From the NCBI GenBank assembly GCA_010093995.1, contig ML992506.1, positions 124,001 through 167,581 of the forward strand: a stretch of 43,581 nucleotides of DNA, written 5' to 3'. Below, one piece after another: positions 8,815 through 43,581 of the stretch; the first letter of the stretch is position 1; the number at the start of each line of letters is the position of its first letter. The notes beneath the pieces are model-generated. The model worked only from the letters and a program-made list of their open reading frames with translations. It made no database searches and was not told the origin of the DNA. The translations under genes and the position numbers were made by a program. This DNA is from Elsinoe ampelina (taxonomy: Eukaryota).

Positions 8815-11800
8815 TCATCTCATCTTCAATTCCATCCGACTAATCTTCTTGACAAACCCAAGTCCTTTCCCACTCTTCTCCTTCCTCAGCACGTTACTAC
8901 TCCTGTCCCTTCCCTCGCTTTCTCGAGGTTTGTGGACGACTGTCTCCCTTTCCTGAGCTTTTTGCCCTTCCTTTGGCTCAATTTCACAGCTCTTATTCCA
9001 CACCCAGCCCATGCCCTCCTTCCTCCCCTCAACTAGGTTTCGAGCCCCTTTCATGCCGGCATCCAACCAATCCCTCAGATCCTCAATGACTCTCAGCTCA
9101 TAGGGTACCTGGAACCTCTCTACAGTCTCCACGATACTGGTAGTCCGCACATACTTGTCAAAGTTGACAACCTCGACTGCCTTGCCTTCGGTCTTCATAC
9201 CTGGCAATGTCCTTGTGCTGGGGTTGCCAGCGTCCACGAACGTCAAGTCTGTGAGGAAAAGACCAATGAAAGGCAAGCAAGGTAGTTCAGCATCTTTGAT
9301 GTGTCGCCTGAGTGTAGAGAAGTTCCTAGTGAACTCGCATATCTCTTTTAACGACTCCAGTATCTCGAGATTCTTGGGAGGGACCAAAGACCAGGTCTGT
9401 CGAAGTCGAGTGATTGCTGACGAGTTGAGGGCACACATGATAGCCATGAGGGTGTCGTAGTTGCGAAGATTGAGACAGCAGGAAGCTACCTTGATCCAAT
9501 GCTTGATGAGCAGGGCTCGATTCTTGGCTTTGGGCGTGAGCACTATCGAAGTGCTAACAAGATGCGTGATATTGGTGGAAAGCGTGGACATGGCACGTAC
9601 ATGAGAAGCGGTCGACTGTGACTTGGTGAGAGCAGCTGACAGGAGCTCCTTTGACTCGATGAGGTTGAAAATTCGTGATGCCATTAGGGTCAATTGGCGT
9701 GCAAGCTCCAGTGGTGTGAAGTCGATCAGATCGACATCACTCGAAGGCGACCTCTGGAGCACACTGAGCTGGTTTTTGCTGATCTCCGAAGGCGGCCCTG
9801 ATTTGCCAAAGTCTTTGATGTTGTCGATATTATGTACTGGTGGTAGCGGCAGCCGGTCGAGGGCAGCTTTCGTTTGGACTTTTCCTATTATGTCCAACAG
9901 TTGATGTCGTGAGGACGGTAACATGTGAACCTGCGGATTAGTAGCGAAATTGTAGAATTTCTCCATAGCTTGGGCGTTTGCCTGCGTATCCCAGTACTCC
10001 CCGAGCCAAGTCTTGATCAGCTCCAGCACTCTTTCCTGTTGCGCGAAGCAGGACTCGACCTTCTTGTCCAGCACCTTGTACTGACTGACGAGAGCACTGG
10101 CAAGATCAGCTGCACCCATGAACTGCCTGAAGGTCAAGAAGAAGGCTTTTGCTGGCTGCGGCTTCTCATCGTTGGTTTGATGTATCAAGTATTCGACGAG
10201 TGACCTTGGAGAGCCTCCCAGAAGTTGTCCATCCGCACCAACCACCAGCTCATGAGCAAAGATCTGGCTGGCGAACTCATTCATGGACCCGCTCTTAGCC
10301 TCGAGCCATGGGATCGATGTGTCAAGGAAAGATGCCCTGTCCGCCGCACTTGCTGGTAAGGGCGTGATAAGATCTGGGGTCGTGGCTCGTGTCGATGGGC
10401 ATGAGACGCTGACGGTCGAGCTCCTCCAGCTTTCCATATCTGAATTGTAACTTGCGGGAGAGGCTTTTATTGCCGACTTGGTGGGATATGGGGTCCGAGA
10501 AGACTTTGTAGGTTTGCCAGTGCAGACGTCTTCGCTGAAGGATACCTTCCGACGCAGGGAGGATGTTTCCGAATCAGTACCACGTCTTGCTGAGACACTC
10601 TGCGTTTCGACGGATAACGAAGTACAAGTGTCAGATTGCATCTGAAGTGTCAGTCGTTGCCGGGCGGTGAATCTCGATAGGTGACTGCTCATAGCTGGTC
10701 GTACCGCAGTGATGTCCCGCTGTGATTTGGCGCTAAGTAGTAAAGCTTTGGCATCTAGGGCATAGTCTCCATGATCCCGTAGGCTCCTCCTGGCTTCAGT
10801 CACACAGTCGGCTGCTGTGCGTATGCAGGTCGTGGCAACCGACATTAGAACATTGGTCGTGAGCGTAGTCTCTAGACCCATCCCGGCCTGCTTCGAGTCT
10901 CTTCGAGGGTCTGGCTGAATGGCGCCAGCGAGAATGGCCAGACTGTTGGCAAATGCTTGGATTGACATGTCAAAGTCATTCGAGGGCCTCATATGGCGAG
11001 CTCTAATATCCTTGATGAGCGCCAGAAGCGTAGACGAGGAGCCAAGAGTTCGCAAGACCATCAGCTTGATCTCATCTGGCGGGCTCGATTGCATGTGTAG
11101 ACCGAGGAAAGATCCCACATTGTCGAAGAATTGTGATTGTGTTATCGTAAGAAGTTCCGAGACTCGACTGGAATTTCTCAGCTCTTCTAATGATGTGGAT
11201 GATCGCGGAACAGCCCTGTAGGTAGGTGCTGCGCTTCTTCTCCTCGCTGCATGAAGAGGTTTTGCTTGACCGGGCGATGGCAACGGCGAGGTGCTGCCCA
11301 AACGACTGCCTGTACTTGCTGGTAGTTCGATCAAAGTCTGTTTGCTGTGACGCCGTAGTCCTAATCTTGATAGACCGCTGAAACGCTGTTTGTGAGACGC
11401 TGTGCTATTTGCCCGGACTGGCTTGATGTCCGGGGCTCTGTCCATAAGATACCGAGAGCTGTTCTGTGAAGGTGGTCGATCATCATCAGGTCTGGCCGTG
11501 ATATTGACATCCGGATCTTGCATGTATTGTGTCCAGACATCCATGAAGCGGACCAAGCGTACCGACACCTTGAATGCTCGTCGTGTGTACTCGTCGACTA
11601 GTCTGGTCCACTCATGGTTGTTAGTGCTTGTTTTAGCTTGTTCAGCGACATGGTTACTGTGCTTGACGAGAGCGGATAGTTCGGCTAGGAGACTGCGTCT
11701 GGTCGTCTGTAAAGGAACGCTGGTCTTAATCAGGCTATCCTCTCGGCGCAGGCAACGGGTTTGATCCTGCAAGCAAGTCAGTTCGAGTCATCTGAACATG

Positions 11801-12205
11801 ATGCTAGACGGCTCTTACCAGCACATGTCTCACGCCTGTTACCAAGACTTGTACTTCCTCCCGTCGGGAGTCACGCCATGCCGCGGCGTGATTGTCTCGA
11901 GCGCCCGCAGTCCAGATCTCGGTAAGACCGTGGAAGAAGGTGCGTACGAATTCGTGGTCGTAGGGTTCGCAGTAATTAGCTGGGATCCAGCCCCGATCAC
12001 CAGAGTTGAGTACAGTCCCGTCTGCCCATCCATTCGAGTTCGTAAGGTGTACCAGGACTACATCGCCCGTCCGTAGTGTTACGGTCTTGGACGTAGGCTT
12101 TCCGGGGTCAGTGGTCGATTGGAGAGGCTCATGATCGTGAAGTGCTCGGATGTACTTTCTGTTCAGAGGCGGAGGTGGGCGATTCCGCTTCGGTGCTCGA
12201 TCCAT
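8815..12205 (-). CDS. SH3-domain Ras GEF (Cdc25/Bud5-like; REM + RasGEF). Intron 11767-11818; 5' end uncertain
   Basis: SH3: YIRALHD...GWADGT...RGWIPANYCE. REM: AFFLTFRQF. RasGEF: ELARQLTL, IKHWIKVA, LRNYDTLMAI, PCLPFIGLFLTDLTFVDAGN, VNFDK. Confidence 0.9.
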
Positions 12206-13599
12206 GTCTTGGGAATGGTGCGTTAAAGATGTCCAGTGCACCGACTACCTTCACGATGCTACCAGTAGGTGCGGACAAGAAATGCGAGGTCTTGCCGCAG
12301 GTGCCATCTCATGCGGAAAAGATGTGGATTGCTGATCGAATATGCCGAGAGTGTCGATCTGAAAAGGCTGTGGCCAGGTCAGGAAAGGCATTGCTGACGT
12401 GAGTCGAGGATGTAAGGAAGGAGCGACGCTATGTACAAAGCACACATGGCCAAGTTGATAACCACATGTCAAGAAGCGCCGGAGCGATGAATGCATACGT
12501 ACATCTTCGAGTATTAATATCCAGTATGCAAATCGAAATTATTCTTGGTAGACCCGAGGCGCCACCAATGCAAGACCAACTTTTCCTAGACGAACGAAAA
12601 AGCCACCGACCAGATAAATGCAAATTGCTTGTGAAGTCGTATAGTCAAACCGAAAGCCTGTGGACAAGCATCAGGAACAAGATATATTCTTGAGGCTGTT
12701 GCCGACGCTCATATATCTCTGACAAGCCGCGGCAGCCAGGTCTCCTGCGGGGATGAATACGACGGTCGATAGTATAGCACTGTATCTGCCTTTAGTAGCC
12801 TCGACAACCTCGGTGTATGGATCTTTCGCCGGTTGTAAGAATAGAAAAGACGTTTCGCCAAAGGAGAGGTGGGTTGCTATACAAAATTCAAGATCAAGGT
12901 CGAGCTGCAGGTCTTCTCTATAATGCTGTCTGCGAATAGCACAGACGGGTGACCTGACAGTGATCGCTGTTTAGCGTCCATGTCGGCGTGGACGTCACCA
13001 AACCTTGAACTTGGTAACGGTCACTGGCTCGCGTGCAAATCCCTAGGCCGCTGGCTAATGGCCTGTCAGAGAGTCGATCAGTGCAAGGGTAGACGGTTCT
13101 ATGAGACTACGGGTGCGAGTCTGACCAGGGCAGCAGTTGGAAGGTGCGCTTTTGGCAATGGTTTGGACCCAGCGGGCACAAGCCAACATGGCTTGAAAGC
13201 TTGAAAGTCTGTCTCGAAAGTGACCAGGGTTAGGCGACCGAGGACGAACCGATTTGATGGGGATTGCCAATGCACATGGTGGTGCGCGGGGAACCTGGGT
13301 GGCCCTCGCAAATGCTACTCCCTCGGAGCGCGGGTCGTTGCATGGCCGTCGTGTCGCATGTCGTCCAAGCGATATGCAGTCGAGTGAGCGGCGTAGCTCT
13401 TGTTCGAGGTCGCAGAGTCTGCCAACTTCCGAGGCTGAAGTCTCCCATATGGTTCGTCGTCTGCCGCAGAGCGATCAGTTCCTATAGGGACGCTCAAGCT
13501 TCACTCGCTGGGCCTACTTCCCCCCTCGCCAGAAGTCAATGGCGCTGTCGACGAAGCTTGATAACATTTAGGCCCTACAGAGGGTAGTCCTTCTCGAAT

Positions 13600-13903
13600 G
13601 GGGATTGCTATTTACCTCTACCATATTTGCTATTTACCCACCCGCCAAGACGCTAAGCTTAAAGACTGAGCTTAATGTTTTATGCCCCTACTTACGGTAT
13701 ATACTAAACACCTGCCTAGCGGCGAGCGACCTAGCTAAGAATATGTCCGGCTCGCACGAGCGAAGCGAGTAAGAGCTATTACTCTTTACTATAGAAAATA
13801 TCTAAGATATATAAGGATATAGAGAGCGTACGGAAGCTCCCGGAGCCTAGCGTCTTGGCGGGTGGGTAAATAGCAAATATGGTAGGGGTAAATAGCAATC
13901 CCC
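13600..13903. mobile_element. 304-bp non-autonomous TIR element (MITE), probably Mutator/MULE-derived
   Basis: TIRs at 13600-13655 and 13848-13903 (56 bp with 1 mismatch; 60 bp with 2). Perfect 9-bp TSD TTCTCGAAT at 13591-13599 and 13904-13912. TpA-rich non-coding interior. Confidence 0.92.
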
Positions 13904-28186: not shown

Positions 28187-28718
28187 CCGAGGAATATGCA
28201 TGGAAGCACTCGAGACTGGCTCGTGTCGCTGGTGACCTGCACGGTAGCTATCTACTTCTATTGTGAGGCTCAGCACCACCAGCCGTCATTTCATCAATCT
28301 CACTCTCGAGCATTGATATTTTCTTCATCTGTTGGGCATCTCAGACGGGTCCTTTCAACAACGGAAATAATACAGCGCCCAATGGCAGCGGGAAAAGCGC
28401 TGGGACGAATGACGTGTTTCGATTCGTGGAATTTGACCAGCAGATTTGAGCCGCGCCGGCCAGAGAGGCCCCAAAACCTCCGATGCATGTGAAACAGCCT
28501 TTTTACGACTACGAATCTTCAAAGGTACAGTTCATACCACACTTTCCAGCTTCACCTAACTTTCTGGTTGACTTGTGTCATAAGTGCCATTCTTACTGGG
28601 CACTTGGATCTATTACAATGCCCTCGAGGCTTTCTTAATTCCCCTCTTCTAGCTTTCCCTCAGCTTCCCCAGTTCTCGGCATACCTGGATCGACCGAGCA
28701 ATAAGGTAGTCCAACAAC

Positions 28719-30944
28719 ATGGCCGCGCGGAGAGGATCAAGGCTCCTCAAGGGCCTAGGATACACAGCCGGTGCCGGTGCCGTCACCGCCGGTGTCCTCT
28801 ACATCTCCTACCGACCGCGCAACATTCCCGGATCAGAGAGCGCTGTCGTAGCCCCTCCTACAGTCGGCGAAGGTGGAATCTTCCGGCCTCCCAACTTTCC
28901 CAAAGTCAAGAGCAGAGATGAACAAATAGAGGATCTCAAGGCCTCTGCTGCTGAGAACATCAAGGGTGCTGCGAGCAAGATCAAGTCGGCCCTCGGCGGG
29001 CAGCCTGAGCCAGCAGATGCAGAGGGCGAGGAATACGACCTGTTGATCATCGGAGGTGGAGCTACTGGCACTGGTGTCGCCCTTGATGCCGCCACTCGTG
29101 GACTGAAGGTAGCTCTTGTAGAGCGCGACGATTTCGCATCCGGCACGAGCAGTAAGAGCACAAAGTTGGTCCACGGAGGTGTCAGATATCTGGAAAAGGC
29201 CTTTTGGGAGCTCGACTACAGCCAGTATGCCCTGGTCAAGGAAGCTCTGCGCGAGAGGAGATACTTCCTGGACACTGCGCCTCATCTGTCCTCTTGGCTC
29301 CCAATCATGATTCCGGTCAACAAATGGTGGCAGGCGCCATACTTTTGGGCTGGCACAAAGGCTTACGATTTCCTGGCTGGTTCCGAGAACATCGAATCTT
29401 CCTACTTCCTCACCCGCAGCAAGGCTCTGGATGCATTCCCTATGCTCAAGAAGGACAACCTTGTCGGTGCTCTCGTCTACTACGATGGCGCTCACAACGA
29501 TTCTCGCATGAACATCTCACTCGCCATGACTGCTGCTCTGTATGGCGCAACTGTCGTCAACCATCTCGAAGTTACCGGACTCACAAAGGACGCCAATGGA
29601 CGGCTCAACGGAGCCATAGTCAAGGATCTCGTCCCGGAAAAGAATGGCCAAAAGGCATCTGAATTCAAAATCCGCGCAAAAGGTGTCATCAATGCTACAG
29701 GTCCCTTCTGCGATGCCGTCCGCAAGCTCGACGATCAGTCCGTACCTGAAATTGTTGCCCCCTCTTCCGGCGTCCACATCATCCTCCCTGGCTACTACTC
29801 TCCTTCCAACATGGGTCTGATCGATCCCAAGACATCGGATGGACGTGTCATCTTCTTCCTCCCATGGCAAGGCAACACCATTGCCGGTACCACCGACGCC
29901 CCCTGCAACATCGCTCAAAATCCCATCGCCGGTGAAGAAGAAATCAACTGGATCTTGTCCGAAGTGCAAAACTATCTCCAACCCGACATCACCGTACGCC
30001 GAGGCGACGTCCTCGCCGCCTGGTCCGGCATCCGCCCTCTCGTCCGCGACCCCAAGAAAGCCAAATCCGAAGGTCTCGTCCGCAACCACCTCGTCACCAC
30101 CTCGCCCTCCGGCCTCCTCACCATCTCGGGCGGCAAATGGACCACGTACCGCCAAATGGCCGAAGAAGCCGTCGACGAAGCCCTCGCCGAATTCAACCTC
30201 ACCACACGCCCGCTCACCGCCCCACCCCGGGTCTCCGGCACATCCGTCATCGACGCCGACGCCCCCCTGGACGGCACCTGCCAAACCCACCAGGTCAAAC
30301 TCGTCGGCGCCCACGGCTGGTCCAAAACCCTCTTCATCAACCTCATCCAACACTTTGGCGTCGAGACCGACGTGGCCAAACACCTCTGCGAAGCCTACGG
30401 CGACCGCGCGTGGCAAGTCGCCGCCCTCTGCGCGCCCACGGAATCCCGCTTCCCGGTCCGCGGGAAACGCATCTCGGCCCTCTACCCTTTCGTCGACGGC
30501 GAGGTGCGCTACGCCGTGCGCCACGAGTACGCCCAGTCCGCGACGGATGTGCTGGCGCGGAGGACGAGGTTGGCGTTCCTGAACGCGCAGGCGGCGTTGG
30601 AGGCGTTGCCCGGCGTCATCGATCTGATGGCCGAGGAGTTGAGGTGGAATTCTGCGCGCAAGGAGCACGAGTGGAAGAATGGGGTCGAGTTTTTGGGGAG
30701 TATGGGGTTGCCCAAGGGGAAGCTTGGGTTGAGCAGGAAGGATGTGGAGAGTGGCAAGGTGGGGAAATATGAGGATGAGGAGTTTGGGTTGTATGCTAGG
30801 CATGGTGAGTGGCTCTCTCGAGATGGTTGGGCGAACAAATGCTGATGAGATACAGATAAGCCGCAGGAGACGTTGGAGAGTGATAGCAAGTTCCCCAAGG
30901 GGACGAACCCGACTATTGGGGTTGATTCGCCAGCGAACAAGTAA
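28719..30944 (+). CDS. GUT2: Mitochondrial FAD-dependent glycerol-3-phosphate dehydrogenase. Intron 30805-30855
   Basis: DLLIIGGGATGTGVALDAATRGL, SGTSSKSTKLVHGGVRYL, WSGIRPL, GGKWTTYR, DVLARRTRLAFL. Confidence 0.96.
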
Positions 30945-31205: not shown

Positions 31206-34200
31206 TCAGACATCTAGACTCTCCCTGAATCTCAACACTGCATTGCCCTCCAACATCCCATCCACAGCCTCCGGTATCCCATGGAAGCTACTCGCTGGTG
31301 CCTTGGGCCTAGCGTCTGTCCCGCTTACGTCCGTGATGAGCACAAGTCCTGCAACCTTGATCGCCTCGCTCAGTGCTGGCACAAGGGCCAACAGTCTTGC
31401 CGAGCAAACTAGTCCCATGAAATTGTTCCCTTGAGCGACCCGCACCGCCTCCTTAACCGACATGGCGGCGCGACCCTCGCTGACGATGTGGGAGAGGTCA
31501 CTGCTGCGTGTGTCAGGCGTCGGAGTGACCCCCAAGTCGTTGCAGAGGAGGACAGGGTCTGGATGACGTCAGTAATTGCATCGTCCAAGACGACGGATAT
31601 GGACTTACAATTTGGCTGTTTCCAGTTGAGCCCAATGCAGACGTCCGGGTTGTAGGATGAGAAGACCACACCTCGCACCAGTCCTTCGTTGGCTTCTCGC
31701 ATCTGAGAAGCATGCTCGAAGATCACTGCGAGGATGCTGTCGATGACTGAGTTCATGTTGCTAGAGGGGCCGAGGTTGGAGGCATCCTCTTGTGTGCGAG
31801 AAGGATAGATGACATGTATGTCGAGGTGGATCTCGGGAGGAAGGAGGTTGACTACTTCTCTGAGAGGTGCACATGATGTGGCCAAAGCGTGTGCTAATGG
31901 TCTCGGATCGTGCGGGTAGGTGGAGATGGCTTGAGCAATCAGTTGAGAGATGGGTGGCTGTCTGGATGCAGCTGTGACTGCACTGAGTTGCTCAAATGTC
32001 AGGCGAGGGATCAGATCGTTGAAGATGCCGAATTGTGAAAGATTCGAGGAGACGGCCCAGCGAGGAAAGAGGACTGGGATGCCGTCTCGAGTGGTCTGTA
32101 CAAACACTCGAATGTAATCACCCGAGAGCGAGGAACCAGTGATCAAGGCGCTAGGCTGTGCACTGATCTGGCTGGTGGCCTTCCAGTATGTAGCGAATTG
32201 CGATACCTCCATTGGCACACCTCTGAAGGGTGTCACCACCTGATATTTGAATGTCATTCGCCCGATCGCCCTTAGCCGTGGGTCGAAGAGCTCCAAATGC
32301 CAGGTTCCGGAGCTGCTGCTTCTACTTGTGAAGACTCGTGATGATGCCGCTGCTCGAGCGATGATGCGACTTCCAAATGTCGGGTAGATGTCGAAATCTA
32401 TCGAGAACGTTTCTAGATTCTCAATCTGGAAGGAGATGTTCTTGTGTTCGTCTTGTATGGGAAGAGCTATGTTGCGAGGAATGAGATCTGATGATTTCGA
32501 GGATATTGTGAGTCTTGCTGCAGGGTATCTGTTGTCGCCATAGAATTCGATCGCGTTCGATCCTTGTGTATCAAAGCTGATGACGATGTACGTCTTGGTT
32601 GTATCGAGGAAGTTGTGGCCATATCGGCGGAGAGGAATGATTGGAGGTGGTAATGAGAGATCTGGTATCGACTCTGGCTCACCCCGGACTGGGAAAGGAG
32701 TCGCCGCTGTGATGGTGGGTGGCTGGACCGCAGCAATCGATGGCGACGTTCGCGAGAGGAGCTTATTTTGTGTTGCGACCTCGAGGAGTTTGAGGCAATC
32801 AAGATGACCCTCCCAGGCTGCGTAATACATGGCTGGAAGGCCTTTCTCGTCCAGCGCATCTGCGTTCGCACCAGACTCAAGCAAAGTCTGGACGCACTGT
32901 AAGTGGCCTTCGCTTGCCGCATGAAACAGTGGTGTCCATTGGTACAGCTTGTCTGGCTGATCAAGATCTGCACCATAATTCTTGAGCATGAGCAAGATCT
33001 TAGGACTTCGTCCTGAACGAGGCACCAGATGTTGGGGATACAGGCCTTCCGCATCTGGTAATATTTTGGGGTTCGACTGCAGCAGCAGGTCCACGATTGA
33101 TGCTGATCCATGCTGACATGCTAGATTCAACGGTATGTGGTCGGTTTCGCTGATTGGATCTATACGCGCGCCGAGCGAGAGTAGTGCTCGTACGACTTCA
33201 AAATGTGATTGCACGATACCATGTATCACAGGTGTAAAATTGTCCAGGTCCAGATAGTCCACCAAACGCACTTGGGTGAGGGTGTGATTTGATGCATTGT
33301 CACCTGCTTTTGGACCTTGTTGTGACCGATCAGCTGCGATCAGTGCTTCAATAGTGGCGACATGGCCTCGCATGCACGCGTAATGAAGTGGAATTCGACC
33401 ATAGACATCAATCGTTCTGATGTCCGCGCCACTCTGCAATGCTAGCGGCAGAGTGTCCTGACGACCAGATATTGCTAGCTCGTGCAGGCATGTTCGTTCA
33501 TTAATGTCATCCGCAAAGTGAATGTCCACGGTGCCGCTGCTGAGTAAAGCTTGCTGAGCTGGAACGGGTGCCTGGTTGATTGTGTTAAGGAAGAGTCGGC
33601 TGATACGCACTCGACCATGGTGATTCGCGGAAATCCTGTTGACCCAATCAATGACCAAGGAGACGTTGTTGGCGATGAAGGCTGTTTGTATCTGACTGTC
33701 AATATCACTCTCATCTTGGTCGCCTGGTCGTAGTTGTGGCGTCTGCTCGGCACTGGTCGTTCGAAACTCAAGATTCTCCCCTTCTGCCCATGCAGCGAGC
33801 TCAAGAAGACTCGTTGTGGCTTGATCGGAAAGGTCGCTTATGACATCCCTGTTGAAGCAGGGCTGGACTTCGACAGCTCTGGATAGATACAGTTCTTTCG
33901 TGCGAGACTTTCGAAATCAGGTTATGCGCAAGATTAGCACAGTCCTACATACCTTTGACGTCTTGTCCCACTGGTTCCTATTAGCACGGCAGACCTCAGC
34001 CTGATAGACGAGCATGGCTTACCTTCTTCAAGATCTTCGAAAACGCTGTTTGGTTAACTTCGACAAATTGCTGCGAAATATTAAAGTCATGCTACTAAGA
34101 TCGATGCGGACGCCTACTTGAAGCTTATCAAGATCGCTATTGAAGAGTCGGAAGCCTTCGTCCAGGGTGCGATAGACCGAGGAAAGCTTGGAAGCGGACG

Positions 34201-34752: not shown

Positions 34753-35423
34753 GACTGCGAAGGCCGGAAACGGATGTCAGAGACCGTTACTACCAGTAAA
34801 TATGTCGAGGAGGGGCAATGGCGTGTTCAATCAACATTCGCTGTCTCTTCAGGTTGAAGGATCGGGATCGTCCATGGTCCTTGATTAATCTTGCATCAGA
34901 GGAGCTTCATTCCCAGCCGATCTCTTCTGCGAATCCAGGGGCAGCTGTATGAAGCTTTGTCGATGGCGAACAGAGAACGAAGTTGCAAAGACTGTCGAGT
35001 CGTGAAACATAGACTATCGATAAGCCCCGCTATGAGCTCAGGCGTCCGCGAAGAAAGCTTCCCACGCTGCAAGTAATCAACTTCGCGTCGATGCAGGCGC
35101 AATACGACTTCTTCTTGAGTCTTGAAGAGCAATGCTTCTCCGATAGCCAATCAAGTCAGCACGTTCTCTGCGATCCCGTGACGGCTCGGCTGCTGCCGAC
35201 ATGACTTGCATCACGGCTCTGTCATCCCACTCTCGAGTCATGCTCGAATCCTCGCGGAATTATGGCCGCCACATGTCGTGATGTCCAATCCAGCCCTTTC
35301 GACTTCAACCCCAAAACCGTTCATGGATGACAAAGCTGCGGTGCAGTATTTCAAGTGTCTTTTCGAGGCTTTTTCCGAGTAAGTCTACCAACAGGTAATC
35401 ATCTGTAATAACTTGCTGGCTTC

Positions 35424-36522
35424 ATGCCCCATCTGCGCATTTCCTACACACTTGTACTTCCTATCCTGGCTGCAATCATTCTCGCTGCAGTGTCTCCATC
35501 TTTCCGCTCTACCATCATAGTCTGGGCTGGTAGGAATATCTCAACTACGAGGCAAACAAGTAGGCCCTCGCGCCCGTCGTTCTCGAATATGGCACGTACT
35601 CCTGTCTACTTCCTTAGCCATGGCGGACCGAACATCATGTACGACACCGAGCATCCTGCGTATAAAAAGCTTCAAGAAATCGGCAAAGAGATCACGGAAA
35701 AGGTCCGACCAAAAGCCATCGTAGTCTTCTCGGCGCATTGGCAAGCAGAGCCAAACACAGTGGAGGTCAACACCGCTGAGATGAATCCTTTGATCTACGA
35801 GTGAGTGGACATGGGCAGACCCGTATAATTGCAAACTACTCACGTGTTATTCAGCTACTATGGCTTCCCCTCTCACTACTACGAGCACAAATTCCCAAAC
35901 GTGGGAAACAAAGCTTTGGCTGAGACGGTACTCCAGCGTCTTCGCAATGCAGGGATCAATGCACAAGGCGTCAAGCGCGGTCTTGACCACGGTGTCTTTG
36001 CACCCTTCACAGTGGCCTTCAATCCTCAAACAAACCCTCTGAGCATTCCGATCGTGCAAGCAAGTCTCTTCGATAGTGATGATCCAGATCAGCATTACAA
36101 GCTCGGCCAAGCAGTTGAGAGTCTGCGAGATGAGGGCGTCCAGATCATCGCCAGTGGAATGGCTGTCCATAATTTGCGAGACATGTTCGCGGCGATGAAC
36201 AGACCAACACCAATGCCGTACACTTTGTCGTTCGACAAAGCCTTGAAAGAAGCCGTTGAGCAAAAGGTAACGATGCCCTGCACGAAAGACGTGAGCATGG
36301 ACGCTAATAATAAAAACACAGCCTGAGGATCGACAAACAGCTCTCGCAGAACTCTTAAAGAGGTCGGATGCAAGACGAGCTCATCCATCATTCGAGCATT
36401 TATTGCCTATTCACATTGCCGCCGGTGCTGCAGGAAAAGATCCAGGCAAGCAATTCTGGACTTTGCCGCAGGGAAGCATGAGCTGGGCACAGTATCGTTT
36501 CGGTGAGATCCAAGCCGCTTAG
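35424..36522 (+). CDS. LigB-type extradiol ring-cleavage dioxygenase (DOPA 4,5-dioxygenase-like). Introns 35801-35854 and 36267-36321; second in-frame ATG at 35589
   Basis: FLSHGGP, FSAHW, LIYDYYGFP, RGLDHG, SGMAVHNLR, AHPSFEHLLP. Confidence 0.9.
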
Positions 36523-37018: not shown

Positions 37019-37267
37019 TGCTGCCTTTCGATTCGTGTTTGAATTAGTAAATGTGTGTATTCCAAAGACATGAAGTCCTCCAAACGCCCACCCAACTTCA
37101 CTCTTGGCACCCACCGGAATCCCCGTCCGGACATAGCTTCTTCTCCGCACACGAGAGAACAACTTCAACCTCAACTCACCTCACCTCACCTTCCAATCCC
37201 CAACACCACCCCCCTCTCCACTCCCGGATCAATTCCTCCCCCACCCCCAATCCACAGAGCATCAACA

Positions 37268-37950
37268 ATGTCTCAACGCCTCGGCCTCCGCGCCGTCCAG
37301 GCTTTCCGCCAGACCACCGCCCCAGCTGCCCTCCGCCGGCAACCTTTCGCCGCGAGGACGACGCGGTACTACAGCGATGCGCCCGCGGCGCCGACGCAGA
37401 GTCGCTTCCAGCAGATCTGGAACAGTGAGGTGGGGCCGAAGACGGTGCATTTCTGGGCGCCGATCATGAAGGTCAGTTCATACATGTATGAATTCAGAGC
37501 AGATTCAGGATGGATGAGCTGGGATGGGTTGAGGAGTGAGGAGCTGTCGCTGCAAGACGGAGTATGGTGGCGGGTAGTCGGAGCTAGCAGACGGGTTGGG
37601 CTAGGCATTGAGCACATACTGACATTTCCCAGTGGGGTGTCGTCCTCGCCGGCGCAGCGGATTTCCTTCGCCCGGCGTCGTCGCTGTCGATCTCTCAGAA
37701 TGCAGCTCTCATGGCTACAGGCTCTATCTGGACACGTTGGTGCTTCATCATCAAGCCGCGGAACCTGTTCCTCGCTTCGGTCAACTTTATGCTTTTCCTG
37801 GTCGGCGCGACGCAGGTGACGAGGGTGTTGCTGTACAGGGCGAGTTTGAAGGGTGATACTGTTGGGGAGGAGGCTAAGAGTGCGGCCAAGGAGGAGGGCA
37901 AGAATCTTGAGCAGGCAGTGGAGAAGGCGGAGATCAAGGTCAAATCTTAA
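37268..37950 (+). CDS. MPC2: Mitochondrial pyruvate carrier subunit (MPC2-type). Intron 37472-37632
   Basis: GPKTVHFWAPIMK|WGVVLAG...RP...ATGSIWTRWCFIIKPRNLFLASVNF. Confidence 0.93.
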
Positions 37951-38094: not shown

Positions 38095-39185
38095 TTACCT
38101 AGCCAAATTCTCTGGTGCTGCGGTAGGTGGCCCCTCGGGTGTAACATACGCCTTGGTCATGCCACCGTCAACCACAAAGTCTGCGCCGTTGACGAAGCTG
38201 GCCTCGTCGCTGGCAAGGAACAGAACTGCCTGAGCCTGCTCAATAGCTTCACCGAAACGACCTGTGGGGAAGTGGATCTCCCTGCGCTGACGCTTGGCCT
38301 TGTCGTCTCCTAGCCAGTCCTGAAGGAGGGGAGTGCTGGGGCAGTCAGTCTAGGAGGTCGTTGTCAGTCGAGCAGGAAGCTTACTTGAGAGGTGCCGGAC
38401 AGAGAGAGTTGAACCTGAATCCTTCTCTAGCATGCACGATAGCTAGTTCTCTGGTCATGGCCAGGACAGCACCCTTGCTTGCAGTGTACGCCAATTGAGG
38501 AGTGGCGGCTCCGACAAGTGCAACTACTGATGCGGTGTTGATGATGGAGCCCTTTGTCTTCTTGTGCTTGCGTAGAGAGATGACAGCATGCTTGCTGCCA
38601 AACCATACACCCTTGACATTGATGTTGTGCGTGAGATCCCAGATTTTCTCGGGGGTGTCAATGGCATCTGCACTTCTTAGCATAACTTTCAAAAGCCTCC
38701 TTTCGGACAGCTTACCAGCATCATCAGCATGCATGATTCCAGCGTTGTTGAAGATCACATCAAGGCCGCCCCATGAATCAAGATGCTCGACCATGGCCGC
38801 CACATCCGATTCCTTGCTGACATCGCAGGTCTTGACTTCGACTTTACCGCTAGCGTTAGGAACAACCTCTTTCAGCTTAGCAAGGCCCTTGTCGAGTGCT
38901 GGAGCAGAAATGTCGGCCATGAGCACGTTGGCGCCTTCCCTTGCAAAGAGGATACATGTCTCTAGACCGATACCCCTTTGCAAAGTTAGCACTCTGATCA
39001 AAGACGGAGAATTGAATAAGTCGACTGAACATTGAGAAACCCAGTGATCAGATAGACTCTGCGTGCTTTTTGGTACGCATGGATCGAGACGGTCAAGTAT
39101 GGGTGGCATTATTGGAAGAGCTCACTTACCCTGCAGCACCCGTGACGATAGCGTTCTTGCCAGCGAGGCGACCACCGGAACTCAT
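38095..39185 (-). CDS. Classical NAD(H)-type short-chain dehydrogenase/reductase resembling glnA4-locus SDRs. Introns 38976-39129, 38668-38715, 38336-38384
   Basis: TGAAGGIG, NNAG, SIINTASVVALVGAATPQLAYTASKG (YxxxK), LCPAPLNTPLL, VDGG. An Asp follows beta2 (MADI). Confidence 0.9.
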
Positions 39186-39781
39186 TTTGTGGCCTGGTGT
39201 ATAATATTAATTGCTGCCGGTGATGTTATGATGGAGACTAGAGACGAGGGCTAATTCGAAGACGAAGCGGTATAGCAAGGCTTGTCGAGGCTGTGTGACA
39301 CCTTGTCAAATATGACTTTATTGTAGTCCTAGGGCTATCTCCGCCGGATACGATTGCTATATCCAGCCTTCCGATAACGGGCTGAAATTGCTATCTTGGT
39401 TCTGTCATTTTGTGGTATTCCCGGGACAGACAGAACCGCTGTACTGCCCGAGATGACGACCCCAAAAACTGCTATAAGCCAACATACCTTCTCAACCGTG
39501 TTCAAAGACAGATGCGGCCTGAACCATGTTAATTAGGTGACTATGTGTTGCTCCGTCAATTTGGGCTCGGTTCCTTCCGAATCTGCAGGTGACGTCGATC
39601 CGCGTGCTTGACTCGCGCCATGCAGTGAGCTTTCCCCAGGATTTCCAGCCCTGAGCTGTCGCTGTCGCATGCATCCTGATCGTTATCTCTGTCCCGCTGG
39701 ACCTTGACCCGCTTGTCTTTGAGCAGTTTACTCCCACACCATTGCACGCCATTCCACAAGCAAGTCAAGCATTCAGTAATC
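39186..39781. promoter_or_regulatory. Putative bidirectional promoter of the SDR and GS-like genes, with HGATAR sites and a TCGG-N6-CCGA site
   Basis: HGATAR at 39335-39340(-), 39372-39377(+), 39391-39396(-), 39683-39688(-). TCGGTTCCTTCCGA at 39567-39580. Function is inferred only. Confidence 0.45.
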
Positions 39782-41356
39782 ATGACCATCACCGACGACC
39801 CAAAGACGCTCGAGGTCAAGGACCTCGCCGACCTCCTCATGAGAGATACCAGCGTCAAGGTTGCTGGGTGCGACATTGACGGCGTACTACGAGGCAAGCT
39901 TATGTCAAAGAAGAAGTTTCTCTCTGTTGCAGAAGATGGATTCGGCTTCTGCTCCGTCATATTCGGCTGGGACATGCATGATCAGACCTACTTCCGAGAG
40001 CTCAAGATATCGAATGCGGACAATGGGTACAGGGATATCATTGCGAGAATCGACCTTAGCAGCTACCGGCGGATACCCTGGGAGGACAATGTACCGTTCT
40101 TCTTGGTCAGCTTTGACGATCCAGATGGGGGTAGCCTGAGTGCATGCCCGAGAAGTGTACTTGGGAGAGCAGCTGCGAAACTCGACGAAGCCGGAATCTC
40201 AGCGCTGGCAGGAGGTAGATATCAGTCAGCGCCTACGAGAACCCAACCTTCGTTGACCACTTGCAGCTGAATACGAATTCTACCAATTCCGAGCACCAGC
40301 CAATCCTGATGTGCCAACGACGGAACGAAATTCATCTTCAACAGCAGCCTACCTTCGAGACAATCAACCCCACACCCTGCCATCGCTGACCGAAGGTATG
40401 TTCGGATACAGCTTGACTAGACCGATGCATAACCAAGACTACTACTACGGTATCTTTGATGCTTGTCAAAAGTTCGGATGCGGAATTGAGGGCTGGCATA
40501 CCGAATCGGGTCCAGGTGTCTTCGAGGCTGCTCTAGAGTACGGCGAGATAAGATCCATGGCAGACAAGGCCGCACTTTTCAAACTCACCGTCAAATCGAT
40601 CGCCAGCAAATACGGTATCACACCGTGTTTCATGGCAAAGCCACGGCAGGGCCTGCCAGGCAATTCGGGGCACATGCATGTCTCGCTTGTGAGCAAGGAC
40701 GGCAAGAATCTCTTCGCACGAGAGTCGCCCGATGAGTCGGCACAATATCCTGATCTGAAGCACTTGTCAGACACTGGACGACACTTCCTCGCAGGACTTC
40801 TTGAGGGTCTCCCGGACGTGATGCCAATTGTGGCTCCTACGATCAACAGCTACAAGCGTCTCGTGGAGAACTTTTGGGCACCGGTGACGGTGAGTTGGGG
40901 ACTCGAGCATCGTGCAGCCAGTATTCGCTTGATAGCGCCTCCCACGGCTTCTCCAAAAGCCACGAGATTCGAGATCCGCGTTGCAGGAGCTGATGCAAAC
41001 CCGTTCCTGGTTCTGGCGACCATTCTTGGGCTCGGATGGCGAGGTGTAGAGAAGAAGCTGGAAATCAAACTGCCGCCTCTGGGTAAAGGTGAGGATGTCG
41101 GCGGCTCATCGGATAAGGGTGCGAGGTTAGCAAAGAGTCTGAAAGAAGCCACCGAGCGCTTCTCGAGGAAAGAGAGCGTAGCGAGGGAGGTGTTTGGCGA
41201 CGACTTTGTAGATCACTATGCTGGGACGAGGGAGCATGAAATCAGGCTATGGGATGAAGCAGTGACGGACTGGTACGCTCCATGTTGGCTGTCTATGCAG
41301 GACTGAACCACTGACGTCTTTCCAGGGAAGTCAAGAGATATATCGAGACGGTCTGA
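39782..41356 (+). CDS. Bacterial-type GSI-like gamma-glutamyl-amine ligase (GlnA4/PuuA-like). Introns 40215-40266 and 41273-41325
   Basis: DIDGVLRGK, AEYEF, HTESGPGVFE, FMAKP..GNSGHMHVSL, YKRLVENFWAP, RAASIR, RFEIRVAGADANP, VTDWE..RY. Confidence 0.9.
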
Positions 41357-41739
41357 TTGTTTGCGAGTAGAGCATAGTGTTTCGGCTATCGGCACTGGAA
41401 CATTGGGAACTGCTCTATTATGCATGTGGCACGCCTCGGCAAAGCTTGATATCGAATGAATAGCGCAGAGTCATTCGCGTGGGATCTGCTTGATCGCTGC
41501 GCTTCATCGATCAATTTTTGAGCCTGATCGAGCATGGTGTAAGCCAGTAATCAAGGTGAAGGAGGTTTGGATCTTCATCTGCCCCTCATCTTGCAGATCG
41601 GAGCTTTTTCTGTTGTAATGGAAGGCTGGTACAGCTTCTCTGGTACTGAAGAACTGGCACTGATGAGTCAGCGCACGCACAGTAGATAAATCGGTTATTG
41701 TAACTCTCTGAATAAAATACATATCTCTCGATCCGATTT

Positions 41740-43581
41740 GCTAGTAATAACAGGTTATAAGCCCGGCGCTTCTATAAAAGCACTTAAAGCTATAGCAAAT
41801 TAAGCGTGTTATTATTAAAAGGATTACTAAGCTGCCTATACTAAATTCTAGACTAGCTATATTAAGACAAACACTTATAGTAGCCTATATTAACCCTTTA
41901 ATTAAATAGCTTAAATGGCTTAAATAAGCTAATTATATTAATTAAATTAATAGGCCTTTAGCTAATTACTATTATTATATCTAGATTAGTAAAAATGCTT
42001 AAGACTTAGATTCTTAAGAGAAGAAGTAACTATAATACTTAGAGATTAACCCTTAAGGTAGCTCTCCTTAAAAAGGATATACTTAGATATATAATTTATA
42101 ATATTAACTAGATACTAGTAGTTATAAAGCNNNNNNNNNNNNNNNNNNNNNNNNNNNNNNNNNNNNNNNNNNNNNNNNNNNNNNNNNNNNNNNNNNNNNN
42201 NNNNNNNNNNNNNNNNNNNNNNNNNNNNNNNNNNNNNNNNNNNNNNNNNNNNNNNNNNNNNNNNNNNNNNNNNNNNNNNNNNNNNNNNNNNNNNNNNNNN
42301 NNNNNNNNNNNNNNNNNNNNNNNNNNNNNNNNNNNNNNNNNNNNNNNNNNNNNNNNNNNNNNNNNNNNNNNNNNNNNNNNNNNNNNNNNNNNNNNNNNNN
42401 NNNNNNNNNNNNNNNNNNNNNNNNNNNNNNNNNNNNNNNNNNNNNNNNNNNNNNNNNNNNNNNNNNNNNNNNNNNNNNNNNNNNNNNNNNNNNNNNNNNN
42501 NNNNNNNNNNNNNNNNNNNNNNNNNNNNNNNNNNNNNNNNNNNNNNNNNNNNNNNAGTAGCTAGTTATATTAAGGATTAATATACTTAGTATACTTATTA
42601 TATCGACTCTAATATAGATTACTTTAAGTAGTACTCTAAGAAAGTACTAAAGAGTTAAAGTAAAAGAAATAATAAAGATAAGTTAAATAATAAAGGTATA
42701 AAAGTGTTACGAACTATCTAAACATAGCCTACGCTAGTAGTCTAAGCTAAGCTAGGAACGAGGTAGTTCTACTTCTATAGTAGTATAGCACTAAGGTAAG
42801 AGTTAGAGAAGGTATATCTTATAGATAATAAAGTATAATTAGATAGTATTATAAAGGCTAGCCTTAGTAATACTAGTGTTCGCTATCTAGATAAGGTTAA
42901 CTATAGTACTTATATAAGGTAAGGACTATTCCTATATATATATGTTCTTTATTATGTTCTCTATATACTTTATATACTCTGTAGCGAGAGTTAAGAGCAA
43001 TATAAAGTATATATCCGCTAGTAACCTATATACTTTATAGTTTTAGAAGTAGAGCTACTAGAGAAGATAGAGAACTAGGTAAATATTAGACTAGGTTACG
43101 TAATAATCTTAGTAGCTTAATTAGTCCTAACATCTCTATATTCTAGCTATTCTACTAGTTTGTAATATTACTTTTCTTCTTTAATCGAGTTGTTCTAACG
43201 AGTAAGTATTCTTCCTTGTCCTTATATGCTATATACTAAATATGCCTCTTAGTTATCGAAGGCATAGTAAATCTAGTATATCTACACGAAAGAATCTCTT
43301 AGAGTTTATTAAACTATTTAGAACTAATATACTATAGGCTTATTCTCGTTACAAATCGAAGAGGCTAGACTATAAGGTCTATATTTAGTTAGGTATCTAT
43401 AGCTAGTATATTATAAGTAACTACTCGAGTTATAATATTTAAGTAATAAAATCGAAATAGTAGTGTCTTTAGTCTAAGTATATTCGTTTACGAAAGGAAT
43501 TAGTTATAGCTAAGGCTACTAGAAGAGAAGCTAAAGAAGCTTATAAAAAGGCAAAAGAGGCTTATTAAAGAGCTATAGGTA
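41740..43581. mobile_element. AT-rich, RIP-degraded repeat or transposon relic of unknown family, running off the window; left boundary approximate
   Basis: Abrupt shift to AT-rich DNA with very frequent TpA and scarce CpA/TpG, and no ORFs in the track. This is the classic repeat-induced point mutation footprint. Confidence 0.8.
42131..42555. other. Assembly gap (425 N)
   Basis: Run of N inside the repeat block. Confidence 1.

Follow-up and report, generated by a model that had tools for sequence, protein, structure and literature searches.

A divergent ligase and dehydrogenase gene pair of Elsinoe ampelina as the candidate core of a fungal gamma-glutamylation route for ethanolamine

The closest described relatives of the gene pair considered here belong to bacterial loci for the glutamylation of ethanolamine. 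The glnA4 cluster of Streptomyces codes for a membrane protein, a short-chain dehydrogenase, an aldehyde dehydrogenase, GlnA4, a regulator, a transporter and a glutamine amidotransferase, and the report on Streptomyces coelicolor describes GlnA4 as a gamma-glutamylethanolamide synthetase needed for growth on ethanolamine and proposes for this bacterium the same four-step route that is set out below (PMC6529630). A gamma-glutamyl-ethanolamide route is also annotated in Phaeobacter (PMC10132767). The stretch of DNA analysed here, called the window throughout, comprises 43,581 nucleotides of contig ML992506.1 (positions 124,001 to 167,581 of the forward strand, assembly GCA_010093995.1), and the source names of the encoded proteins point to Elsinoe ampelina. 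Its sequence and open reading frames (ORFs) show two divergent genes at 38095-41356, of which one on the plus strand encodes a ligase resembling glutamine synthetase (GS) and the other on the minus strand encodes a short-chain dehydrogenase/reductase (SDR). An earlier note, made from the letters of this DNA alone, had taken the two genes for a eukaryotic counterpart of the glnA4 operon. The literature found on gamma-glutamylethanolamide is all bacterial and reports no fungal or other eukaryotic version, and searches under the fungal protein name, under the use of ethanolamine nitrogen by fungi and under fungal GS-like ligases returned nothing on the pair.

The products of the two genes probably catalyse the first two steps of a gamma-glutamylation pathway by which fungi process a small amino alcohol, most likely ethanolamine, and the probability of this reading is put at about 0.6. 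In the first step, the ligase would use ATP to join the gamma-carboxyl group of L-glutamate to ethanolamine, and the product would be gamma-glutamyl-ethanolamide instead of glutamine because the flap glutamate that handles ammonium in true GS is replaced by tryptophan. The SDR would then oxidise the free alcohol of gamma-glutamyl-ethanolamide to gamma-glutamyl-aminoacetaldehyde. By analogy with bacterial operons, an aldehyde dehydrogenase encoded elsewhere in the genome would convert the aldehyde to gamma-glutamyl-glycine, from which a hydrolase would release glutamate and glycine. For fungi we infer all four of these steps, including the substrate, the direction of the reactions and their regulation. 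The fungal pair combines the ligase of one bacterial operon variant with the alcohol dehydrogenase of another. The two variants follow one four-step logic, and the chemistry indicated by either partner is therefore the same.

The SDR (P0121) is a classical member of its family with the TGAAGGIG, NTAS and YTASK motifs and a match to Pfam adh_short, and an Asp residue after its beta-strand 2 is taken here, by a general rule, to indicate a preference for NAD. Over the fungal matches listed, powdery mildews included, it is 73-92% identical. Among 187 NCBIfam families its best model is NF004713 (PRK06057) with 268.6 bits, the next reaching 211.7 bits, and its best match in the PDB is 4wec with 208.7 bits, followed by one of 146.9 bits. 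4wec itself falls in the GlnA4-operon SDR family (442.9 bits to one operon SDR), and the motifs of the fungal SDR that the earlier note had likened to those of the glnA4-linked enzyme align with it almost letter for letter. Thirty of 201 sampled Actinomycetota genomes hold one NF004713 member over the cut-off and 49 match at E <= 1e-90, 3 of these 49 being left out of further use. At the 20 over-cut-off loci examined out of the 30, the SDRs are 44-50% identical to the fungal SDR, a GS-like ligase lies within 9 kb of the SDR in all 20, and an aldehyde dehydrogenase, a C26 peptidase and a permease are present in 18, 19 and 13 loci, respectively. At 16 sub-cut-off loci, a GS-like ligase is found within the same distance in 14, and the remaining two end at the end of the contig. 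The earlier note had stated that actinobacterial glnA4 loci also encode an SDR, an aldehyde dehydrogenase and an amidotransferase-type hydrolase, and both PMC6529630 and the layout of SDR and ligase in 20 of 20 loci agree with this.

Operon SDRs as a whole are 44-54% identical to the fungal SDR. Three actinobacterial genomes were searched with the fungal SDR, and in all of them the operon SDR comes first among 100-150 candidates, with 200-226 bits and 47-50% identity, the next candidate reaching at most 131 bits. A careful tree of 65 SDRs places 12 fungal and 20 operon sequences in a 32-row clade with support of 100/99. The nearest paralogues, 33 in number and taken from six bacterial genomes, lie outside it, and fungal paralogues are no part of this tree. 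The grouping with glnA4-linked SDRs had been set beforehand as a test of the proposal, and the fungal SDR is accordingly placed as the sister of the actinobacterial GlnA4-operon SDRs.

The ligase (P0001) matches Pfam Gln-synt_C (PF00120) with 257.5 bits. Its best curated models in NCBIfam are bacterial, and all of the scores lie far under the respective cut-offs: 221.4 bits against 429.15 for type I GS (GSI; TIGR00653), 196.2 against 470 for type III GS and 175.1 against 650 for gamma-glutamylputrescine synthetase. E146, E148, E224, E231, H280, H282, R342, R360, R365, E380 and R382 are among the residues that are invariant in an alignment of 16 sequences, and we take the invariant residues to be those that bind metal, ATP and glutamate in GS. 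The segment NSYKRLVENFWAP of the ligase is aligned to NSYKRLVPGYEAP of Bacillus subtilis GS (4lnf), with Trp348 at the position that the flap Glu occupies in true GS (ENFWAP versus PGYEAP). These results bear out the description of the ligase in the earlier note as a bacterial GSI-like enzyme that keeps the catalytic motifs and has Trp for the flap Glu. The ligase departs from a true type I GS both in its TIGR00653 score and at the flap, and it is a GSI-type enzyme lacking the flap Glu. In the N-terminal domain, the alignment with true GS is unreliable at the second ammonium residue (Asp50, from the neighbouring subunit). A further N-terminal motif, FGWDxxD, is common to the fungal ligases and to bacterial ligases linked to a permease, and is absent from the GlnA4 clade.

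According to PMC6478659, the flap position is occupied by E304 in B. subtilis GS, by W296 in the Pseudomonas gamma-glutamyl ligase PA5508 and by W726 in FluG, and the acidic residues that handle ammonium are not kept in such gamma-glutamyl ligases. The view that Trp at this place typifies gamma-glutamyl-amine ligases stands for PA5508 and FluG but does not extend to the GlnA4-type ligases, which have Phe at the flap (GSFAP or GTFAP). A simple pattern search recovers NSYKRF..GSFAP in 14 of the 20 actinobacterial operon ligases, the other six being unmatched. Ligases of the Bacteroidota type described below have Trp (G.WAP).

Among the matches listed, the ligase is 76-83% identical across Pezizomycotina, which by our reading include Dothideomycetes, Lecanoromycetes, Leotiomycetes, Sordariomycetes and Eurotiomycetes. 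Homologues at 46-55% identity occur in Funneliformis (Glomeromycota), in the chytrids Podochytrium and Phlyctochytrium, in Ramicandelaber (Kickxellomycotina) and, within Saccharomycotina, in Wickerhamiella and Trichomonascus. A quick and a careful tree, both calculated under LG+G4 without a mixture model and on sequences that included no eukaryotic type II GS (GSII), unite the fungal ligases of these five groups in one clade with a support of 100. The ligase is thus an old fungal gene rather than the outcome of a recent transfer to a single lineage.

The nearest bacterial ligase loci were taken as the 80 best from bacterial and archaeal contigs with one genome per species. Their ligases are 39-47% identical to the fungal ligase and come mostly from Bacteroidota, with others from Bdellovibrionota, Myxococcota, Burkholderiales, Spirochaetota and further groups. 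An iron-containing alcohol dehydrogenase (Fe-ADH) follows the ligase in 50 of the 80 loci; 41 contain a C26 peptidase and 45 an aldehyde dehydrogenase. The three genes occur together in 41 of the 80 loci, and in 34 of the 55 that extend at least 5 kb to both sides. An amino-acid-type permease lies upstream of the ligase in 39 of the 80, and all three of the permeases tested pass the TIGR00908 ethanolamine permease model (451, 420 and 431 bits; cut-off 381.75). These family names were checked with Pfam on 12 loci. An SDR resembling P0121 is found in none of the 80, one of which has a generic SDR at 29% identity. A supposed fusion of ligase and Fe-ADH in locus L011 (an ORF of 763 amino acids) was rejected, the long ORF lying in the frame of the Fe-ADH and not in that of the ligase. 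A subset of the Bacteroidota loci (L003, L004 and similar ones, at ~11400-13700) is without genes for Fe-ADH, C26 peptidase and aldehyde dehydrogenase; in the two examined, the ligase is followed instead by a protein of ~345 amino acids that matches no Pfam family and by a hydrolase of the HAD type, a different context for the same ligase clade.

In the quick tree the fungal ligases nest within a 45-row clade of the Bacteroidota type with a support of 99, and in the careful tree this Bacteroidota-type clade is paraphyletic around the fungi. In both trees the GlnA4-operon ligases are the sister of the clade formed by the fungal and Bacteroidota-type ligases, and true GS and the other paralogues lie outside. 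The fungal ligase is 28-32% identical to the ligases of the 20 over-cut-off NF004713 loci and 27-31% identical to those of the sub-cut-off loci. When the fungal and GlnA4-operon ligases are forced together, the log-likelihood falls by 37.2 units and the approximately unbiased (AU) test rejects the joint clade (p-AU 0.005), the tested group having been named only after the quick tree was seen. The proposal that the ligase is GlnA4-like by orthology is therefore not upheld, its identity to the GlnA4-operon ligases being 28-32% as against 39-47% to the other clade. Of the earlier proposal of a eukaryotic counterpart of the glnA4 operon, the SDR and its linkage to a ligase hold good and the ligase does not, coming instead from the other operon variant, so that the fungal pair is a mixture of two bacterial operon variants and not a straight copy of the glnA4 operon. 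GS4 of Mycobacterium tuberculosis is the GlnA4 homologue. PMC13740247 places the GS4 of mycobacteria in a cluster with eukaryotic (mammalian) GS and calls it a type II enzyme; this claim and the placement of the GlnA4-operon ligases found here have no direct point of comparison, the present trees holding no eukaryotic GSII.

The linkage of the two genes was followed in 80 metagenome loci that are 60-81% identical to the fungal ligase and were taken as fungal on this identity alone (hereafter fungal-type loci). Contigs that extend 2 kb or more beyond the ligase match on its upstream side were regarded as informative (43 of 80), and 36 of these 43 carry an SDR resembling P0121 (63-88% identity) upstream of the ligase. 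Because of this frequency, the linkage of ligase and SDR is more than chance. When loci with at least 97% identical ligase DNA are merged, the SDR is upstream in 29 of 34 groups, and the linkage that the earlier reading called for is thus conserved across fungi. Over all 80 loci, 38 have the SDR head-to-head with the ligase, 506-2636 bp separating the matches, and four have an upstream SDR on the same strand (L174, L175, L189 and L214); the seven informative loci with no SDR are L150, L157, L202, L204, L205, L207 and L208. Locus tags were also compared in named genomes that have sequential tags for both proteins among the matches listed, and the two tags are adjacent in Sarea resinae (004114/004115), Pycnora praestabilis (001047/001048) and Paraphaeosphaeria sporulosa (003508/003507).

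The gene structures rest on exon models built by hand, which translate to the deposited proteins P0001 and P0121 with an exact match: the ligase has 489 amino acids and three exons, and the SDR has 279 amino acids and four exons. The coding sequence of the ligase runs over 39782..41356 on the plus strand. Exon 1 (39782..40214; start codon 39782-39784) encodes the N-terminal domain, namely residues 1-144 and one base of codon 145. It is followed by intron 1 (40215..40266; 52 nt), across which contigs of the runs X1, X2, X3 and X7 join 40212 to 40265 (cut +2). Exon 2 (40267..41272) encodes the catalytic domain with EYEF, GHMH and the NSYKRLVENFWAP flap carrying Trp348. Intron 2 (41273..41325; 53 nt; joint 41271 to 41325, cut +1, in four runs) precedes exon 3 (41326..41356), which holds the stop codon and the C-terminus ...TDWEVKRYIETV. 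The coding sequence of the SDR runs on the minus strand from 39185 down to 38095. Exon 1 (39130..39185; start codon 39185-39183) contains the first part of the TGAAGGIG dinucleotide-binding motif, and intron 1 (38976..39129; 154 nt) is crossed in four runs by a joint from 38974 to 39129 (cut +1). Exon 2 (38716..38975) is marked by Pfam adh_short and adh_short_C2 and by contigs. Intron 2 (38668..38715; 48 nt) is in frame and free of stop codons, so that the raw ORF reads through it. Exon 3 (38385..38667), aligned with 4wec, carries SIINTAS and YTASK with the catalytic Ser, Tyr and Lys and ends in ...CPAPL. Intron 3 (38336..38384; 49 nt) is seen spliced in contigs, and exon 4 (38095..38335) encodes NTPLLQ across the junction, the C-terminal lid and the stop codon.

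The introns of the ligase have GT..AG ends, and those of the SDR have CT..AC ends as read on the plus strand. Contigs from four coded public runs, which come from three studies, lack precisely the five introns of the model, and both genes are therefore transcribed and spliced according to it. That the runs are RNA could only be guessed from their records; the spliced contigs themselves show RNA. The head-to-head arrangement of two intron-containing genes 596 bp apart, as first noted, is hence confirmed in its coordinates and, through the spliced contigs, in its introns. In each run the two genes lie on separate contigs and none spans both: the SDR contigs extend to 39490 and the ligase contigs start at 39707-39720, contigs being unable to fix the true ends of transcripts. 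Downstream of the ligase, the GC content falls over ~41700-43581 from ~0.53 through 0.44 to 0.16, and the ORFs from ~42128 to 42560 are runs of X (unknown bases). The ligase thus borders an AT-rich stretch with an assembly gap, and its downstream neighbours are therefore unreadable here.

The spacer shared by the two start codons (39186..39781, 596 bp) is presumed to be a bidirectional promoter. HGATAR sites are recognised by the nitrogen regulators AreA and NIT2. The spacer of the window contains four such sites as compared with ~1.9 in shuffled sequences, and the shared spacers of 32 non-redundant head-to-head metagenome loci, 39.2 kb in total, contain 212 as compared with 118 +/- 10.8 (~1.8-fold), a count matched in 0 of 300 shuffles. 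At least three sites are present in 31 of the 32 spacers, and GATA is the commonest of 12 permutations of the core, the next reaching 165. A spacer rich in GATA sites would fit nitrogen-regulated co-expression of the two genes, which is a lead obtained against a weak control.

As the earlier note had stated, the aldehyde dehydrogenase and the hydrolase of the bacterial operons are not in the window. Neither of them, nor an Fe-ADH or an ethanolamine-type permease, was detected there by Pfam searches of 39 of the 111 listed ORFs of at least 110 amino acids or by tblastn of the bacterial operon proteins against the whole window. Fe-ADH and permease genes are likewise found in 0 of the 80 fungal-type contigs. 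An aldehyde dehydrogenase stands beside the pair in five contigs (L163, 11996-13437; L167, 5932-7375; L170, 5730-7126; L173, 34-975; L194, 3950-4879), downstream of the ligase in two of them and beyond the SDR in three. It is the same orthologue in all five (65-95% identity among them), and two sources name it 'Meiotic Sister-Chromatid recombination aldehyde dehydrogenase' (Msc7-like). NF006916 is the best curated model both for this enzyme and for the aldehyde dehydrogenases of the Bacteroidota-type operons, at scores far under its cut-off. The Msc7-like aldehyde dehydrogenase is accordingly a candidate for the third step.

Clustering of ORFs from 44 metagenome loci and the window revealed no third conserved neighbour in more than 8 of the 45 long loci. 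A dienelactone hydrolase, a LigB dioxygenase, a mitochondrial pyruvate carrier, DUF3237 and a phospholipase/carboxylesterase-type hydrolase recur near the pair, each in at most 8 of the 45, and were rejected as members of the pathway. In the window, the SDR is flanked by genes for a LigB-type extradiol dioxygenase (35412-36326, plus strand) and a mitochondrial pyruvate carrier (37043-37950, plus strand); each is near the pair in 7 of the 45 long loci, the window included, which looks like lineage-specific synteny. Further away, 4-10 kb from the pair, are a gene for a mitochondrial-type glycerol-3-phosphate dehydrogenase (28710-30845, plus strand; DAO and DAO_C) and a GDE1-like gene (31409-33916, minus strand; ankyrin repeats and a GDE1 C2 domain). 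Gde1 cleaves glycerophosphodiesters and frees the alcohol of the headgroup, a reaction that would yield ethanolamine. These two genes are absent from the neighbour clusters common to the metagenome loci, and their presence may be a coincidence.

Several observations weigh against a fungal ethanolamine route headed by this pair. No enzyme assay or mutant was found for any fungal member. A C26-type hydrolase near the pair is found in none of the 80 fungal-type contigs and none is in the window, and an aldehyde dehydrogenase is linked to the pair in only five of the 80. The exact pairing of ligase and SDR is seen in none of the 80 nearest bacterial ligase loci, five of the 34 non-redundant fungal-type groups have no upstream SDR, and the locus tags of ligase and SDR are far apart in two named fungi (ANO11243 and LTR50). 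Identity is the sole ground on which the metagenome loci count as fungal, the 268.6 bits of the SDR fall under the NF004713 cut-off of 404, and the enrichment in GATA sites is measured solely against mononucleotide shuffles and core permutations, with no set of other promoters from fungi as a control. At 75-83% identity across fungal classes, both proteins are conserved more strictly than is usual for a peripheral catabolic enzyme, and they may have a more central substrate or role than scavenging. Finally, PMC13740247 reports for M. tuberculosis GS4 only minor activity in vitro with any amine, ethanolamine and ammonium included, and for GS3 a preference for ethanolamine; therefore, operon context does not guarantee the substrate.

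Some of these points also speak for the same chemistry acting on another amine, such as an aminopropanol, serinol or a fungus-specific metabolite, perhaps with a signalling or biosynthetic product as has been proposed for FluG. The assignment of ethanolamine draws only on homologues at 39-54% identity, and both the very high conservation across fungal classes and the lack of a linked permease or hydrolase in the 80 contigs and the window would suit a role other than scavenging. FluG is a fungal GS-like ligase for a gamma-glutamylated metabolite that is unidentified (PMC6478659), and the GS isoforms of M. tuberculosis take several amines (PMC13740247). However, an ethanolamine permease adjoins the nearest bacterial ligases, three of three tested passing the cut-off; the FGWDxxD motif joins the fungal ligases to just this permease-linked clade and not to the GlnA4 clade; and the fungal SDR is specifically the sister of the SDR of an operon proposed for ethanolamine. 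A different amine is for these reasons considered unlikely, if clearly worth keeping in view, and ethanolamine is preferred as the substrate.

It is also conceivable that the two genes share a promoter by descent and serve unrelated pathways, the ligase being of the PuuA/PauA/GlnA3 kind for a polyamine or aromatic amine and the SDR a general dehydrogenase. Regulation alone can preserve divergent gene pairs, SDRs are numerous and promiscuous, and gamma-glutamylputrescine synthetase is among the NCBIfam matches of the ligase, if only at 175.1 bits and far under its cut-off. Yet the nearest bacterial relatives of each partner sit, independently of each other, in an operon of ligase, alcohol dehydrogenase, aldehyde dehydrogenase and C26 peptidase, the pair is kept in 29 of 34 non-redundant fungal-type groups, and the polyamine route uses an oxidase and not an alcohol dehydrogenase, so that two separate functions are given a low probability. 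That the ligase is a second true GS assimilating ammonium, as its annotation as glutamine synthetase in the sources, its catalytic domain and its core residues might suggest, is highly improbable in view of the Trp at the place of the flap Glu, the 221.4 bits against the TIGR00653 cut-off of 429.15, the position of known GS sequences outside the ligase clade and, if the orthologue is among the genes concerned, the glutamine-related growth defect seen in Magnaporthe oryzae on deletion of MoGLN2 only (PMC8229676). Deletion of MoGLN1 or MoGLN3 neither lowers glutamine nor causes a defect in growth or virulence on the media tested, none of the conditions found there involving ethanolamine (PMC8229676). 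MoGLN1 or MoGLN3 may be the orthologue of the ligase.

The reading of the pair as the start of a gamma-glutamyl-ethanolamide route can be carried further, at slightly less than even odds and hence tentatively, to an ancient, kingdom-wide fungal route from ethanolamine to glycine and glutamate via gamma-glutamyl intermediates, which would be under GATA control and have a chimeric, divergent gene pair as its core. The chimera would consist of a ligase from the Bacteroidota-type operon and a dehydrogenase from the actinobacterial GlnA4-type operon. If so, the ethanolamine would be the headgroup released from phosphatidylethanolamine, and the route would be the first eukaryotic catabolic pathway for gamma-glutamyl amines and would give a function to a protein that fungal annotations now present as a second glutamine synthetase. 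The chemistry and both enzyme families are already known from bacteria; what is new is the intron-containing, divergent two-gene core across fungi, its mixed ancestry and the lack of a linked permease and hydrolase. No worked-out route for the breakdown of ethanolamine in filamentous fungi was found in the literature, and with a correct function, the many genes of fungi that at present carry the label 'glutamine synthetase' or 'hypothetical protein' would be re-annotated. Such a function would also tie the turnover of phospholipids to nitrogen and one-carbon (glycine) metabolism in fungi, including plant pathogens and lichen fungi. With its mixed ancestry, the pair clearly exemplifies the non-orthologous replacement of a single step, Fe-ADH versus SDR, in a conserved pathway.

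Among known systems, FluG of Aspergillus nidulans resembles the ligase in its fungal origin, its GSI-like type and its flap Trp, and no GS activity is reported for it in PMC6478659. The likeness is drawn from the flap position, FluG not being among the sequences of the trees. Unlike the ligase described here, which stands alone with 489 amino acids, FluG is an amidohydrolase fused to a GS-like ligase, has a developmental role and has no SDR partner. The best matches of the fungal ligase among solved structures are PDB 5dm3 and 11zs (155 and 160 bits), both of which belong to the GlnA4-operon clade, with 381 and 390 bits to an operon ligase. They differ from the fungal ligase in their GTFAP flap and share about one third of its residues, as judged by eye; no solved structure of the fungal or Bacteroidota-type ligase branch was found. 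We take 5dm3 to be Csal_0679 of Chromohalobacter salexigens. An ethanolamine glutamylation pathway is predicted for C. salexigens in work cited in PMC6529630.

The actinobacterial GlnA4 locus (SCO1610-1615 in S. coelicolor) is similar to the fungal pair in that its SDR is the sister of the fungal SDR (44-54% identity, support 100/99) and adjoins a GS-like ligase, and in that the same pathway logic has been proposed for it (PMC6529630). It differs in its ligase, which is 27-32% identical, carries a GSFAP flap and belongs to a sister clade whose union with the fungal ligases is rejected (p-AU 0.005), and in that the fungal SDR stays under the NF004713 cut-off. The ethanolamine operon of Bacteroidota, Bdellovibrionota, Myxococcota and Burkholderiales consists of a permease, a GS-like ligase of an uncharacterised branch, an Fe-ADH, a C26 hydrolase and an aldehyde dehydrogenase. 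It has an Fe-ADH in place of the SDR and is co-directional with its permease, hydrolase and aldehyde dehydrogenase genes, whereas the fungal pair is divergent and intron-containing and those partners are not nearby. Nevertheless, it is within the ligase clade of this operon that the fungal ligase nests (39-47% identity), and the two have in common the Trp at the flap, the FGWDxxD motif and the same predicted first reaction.

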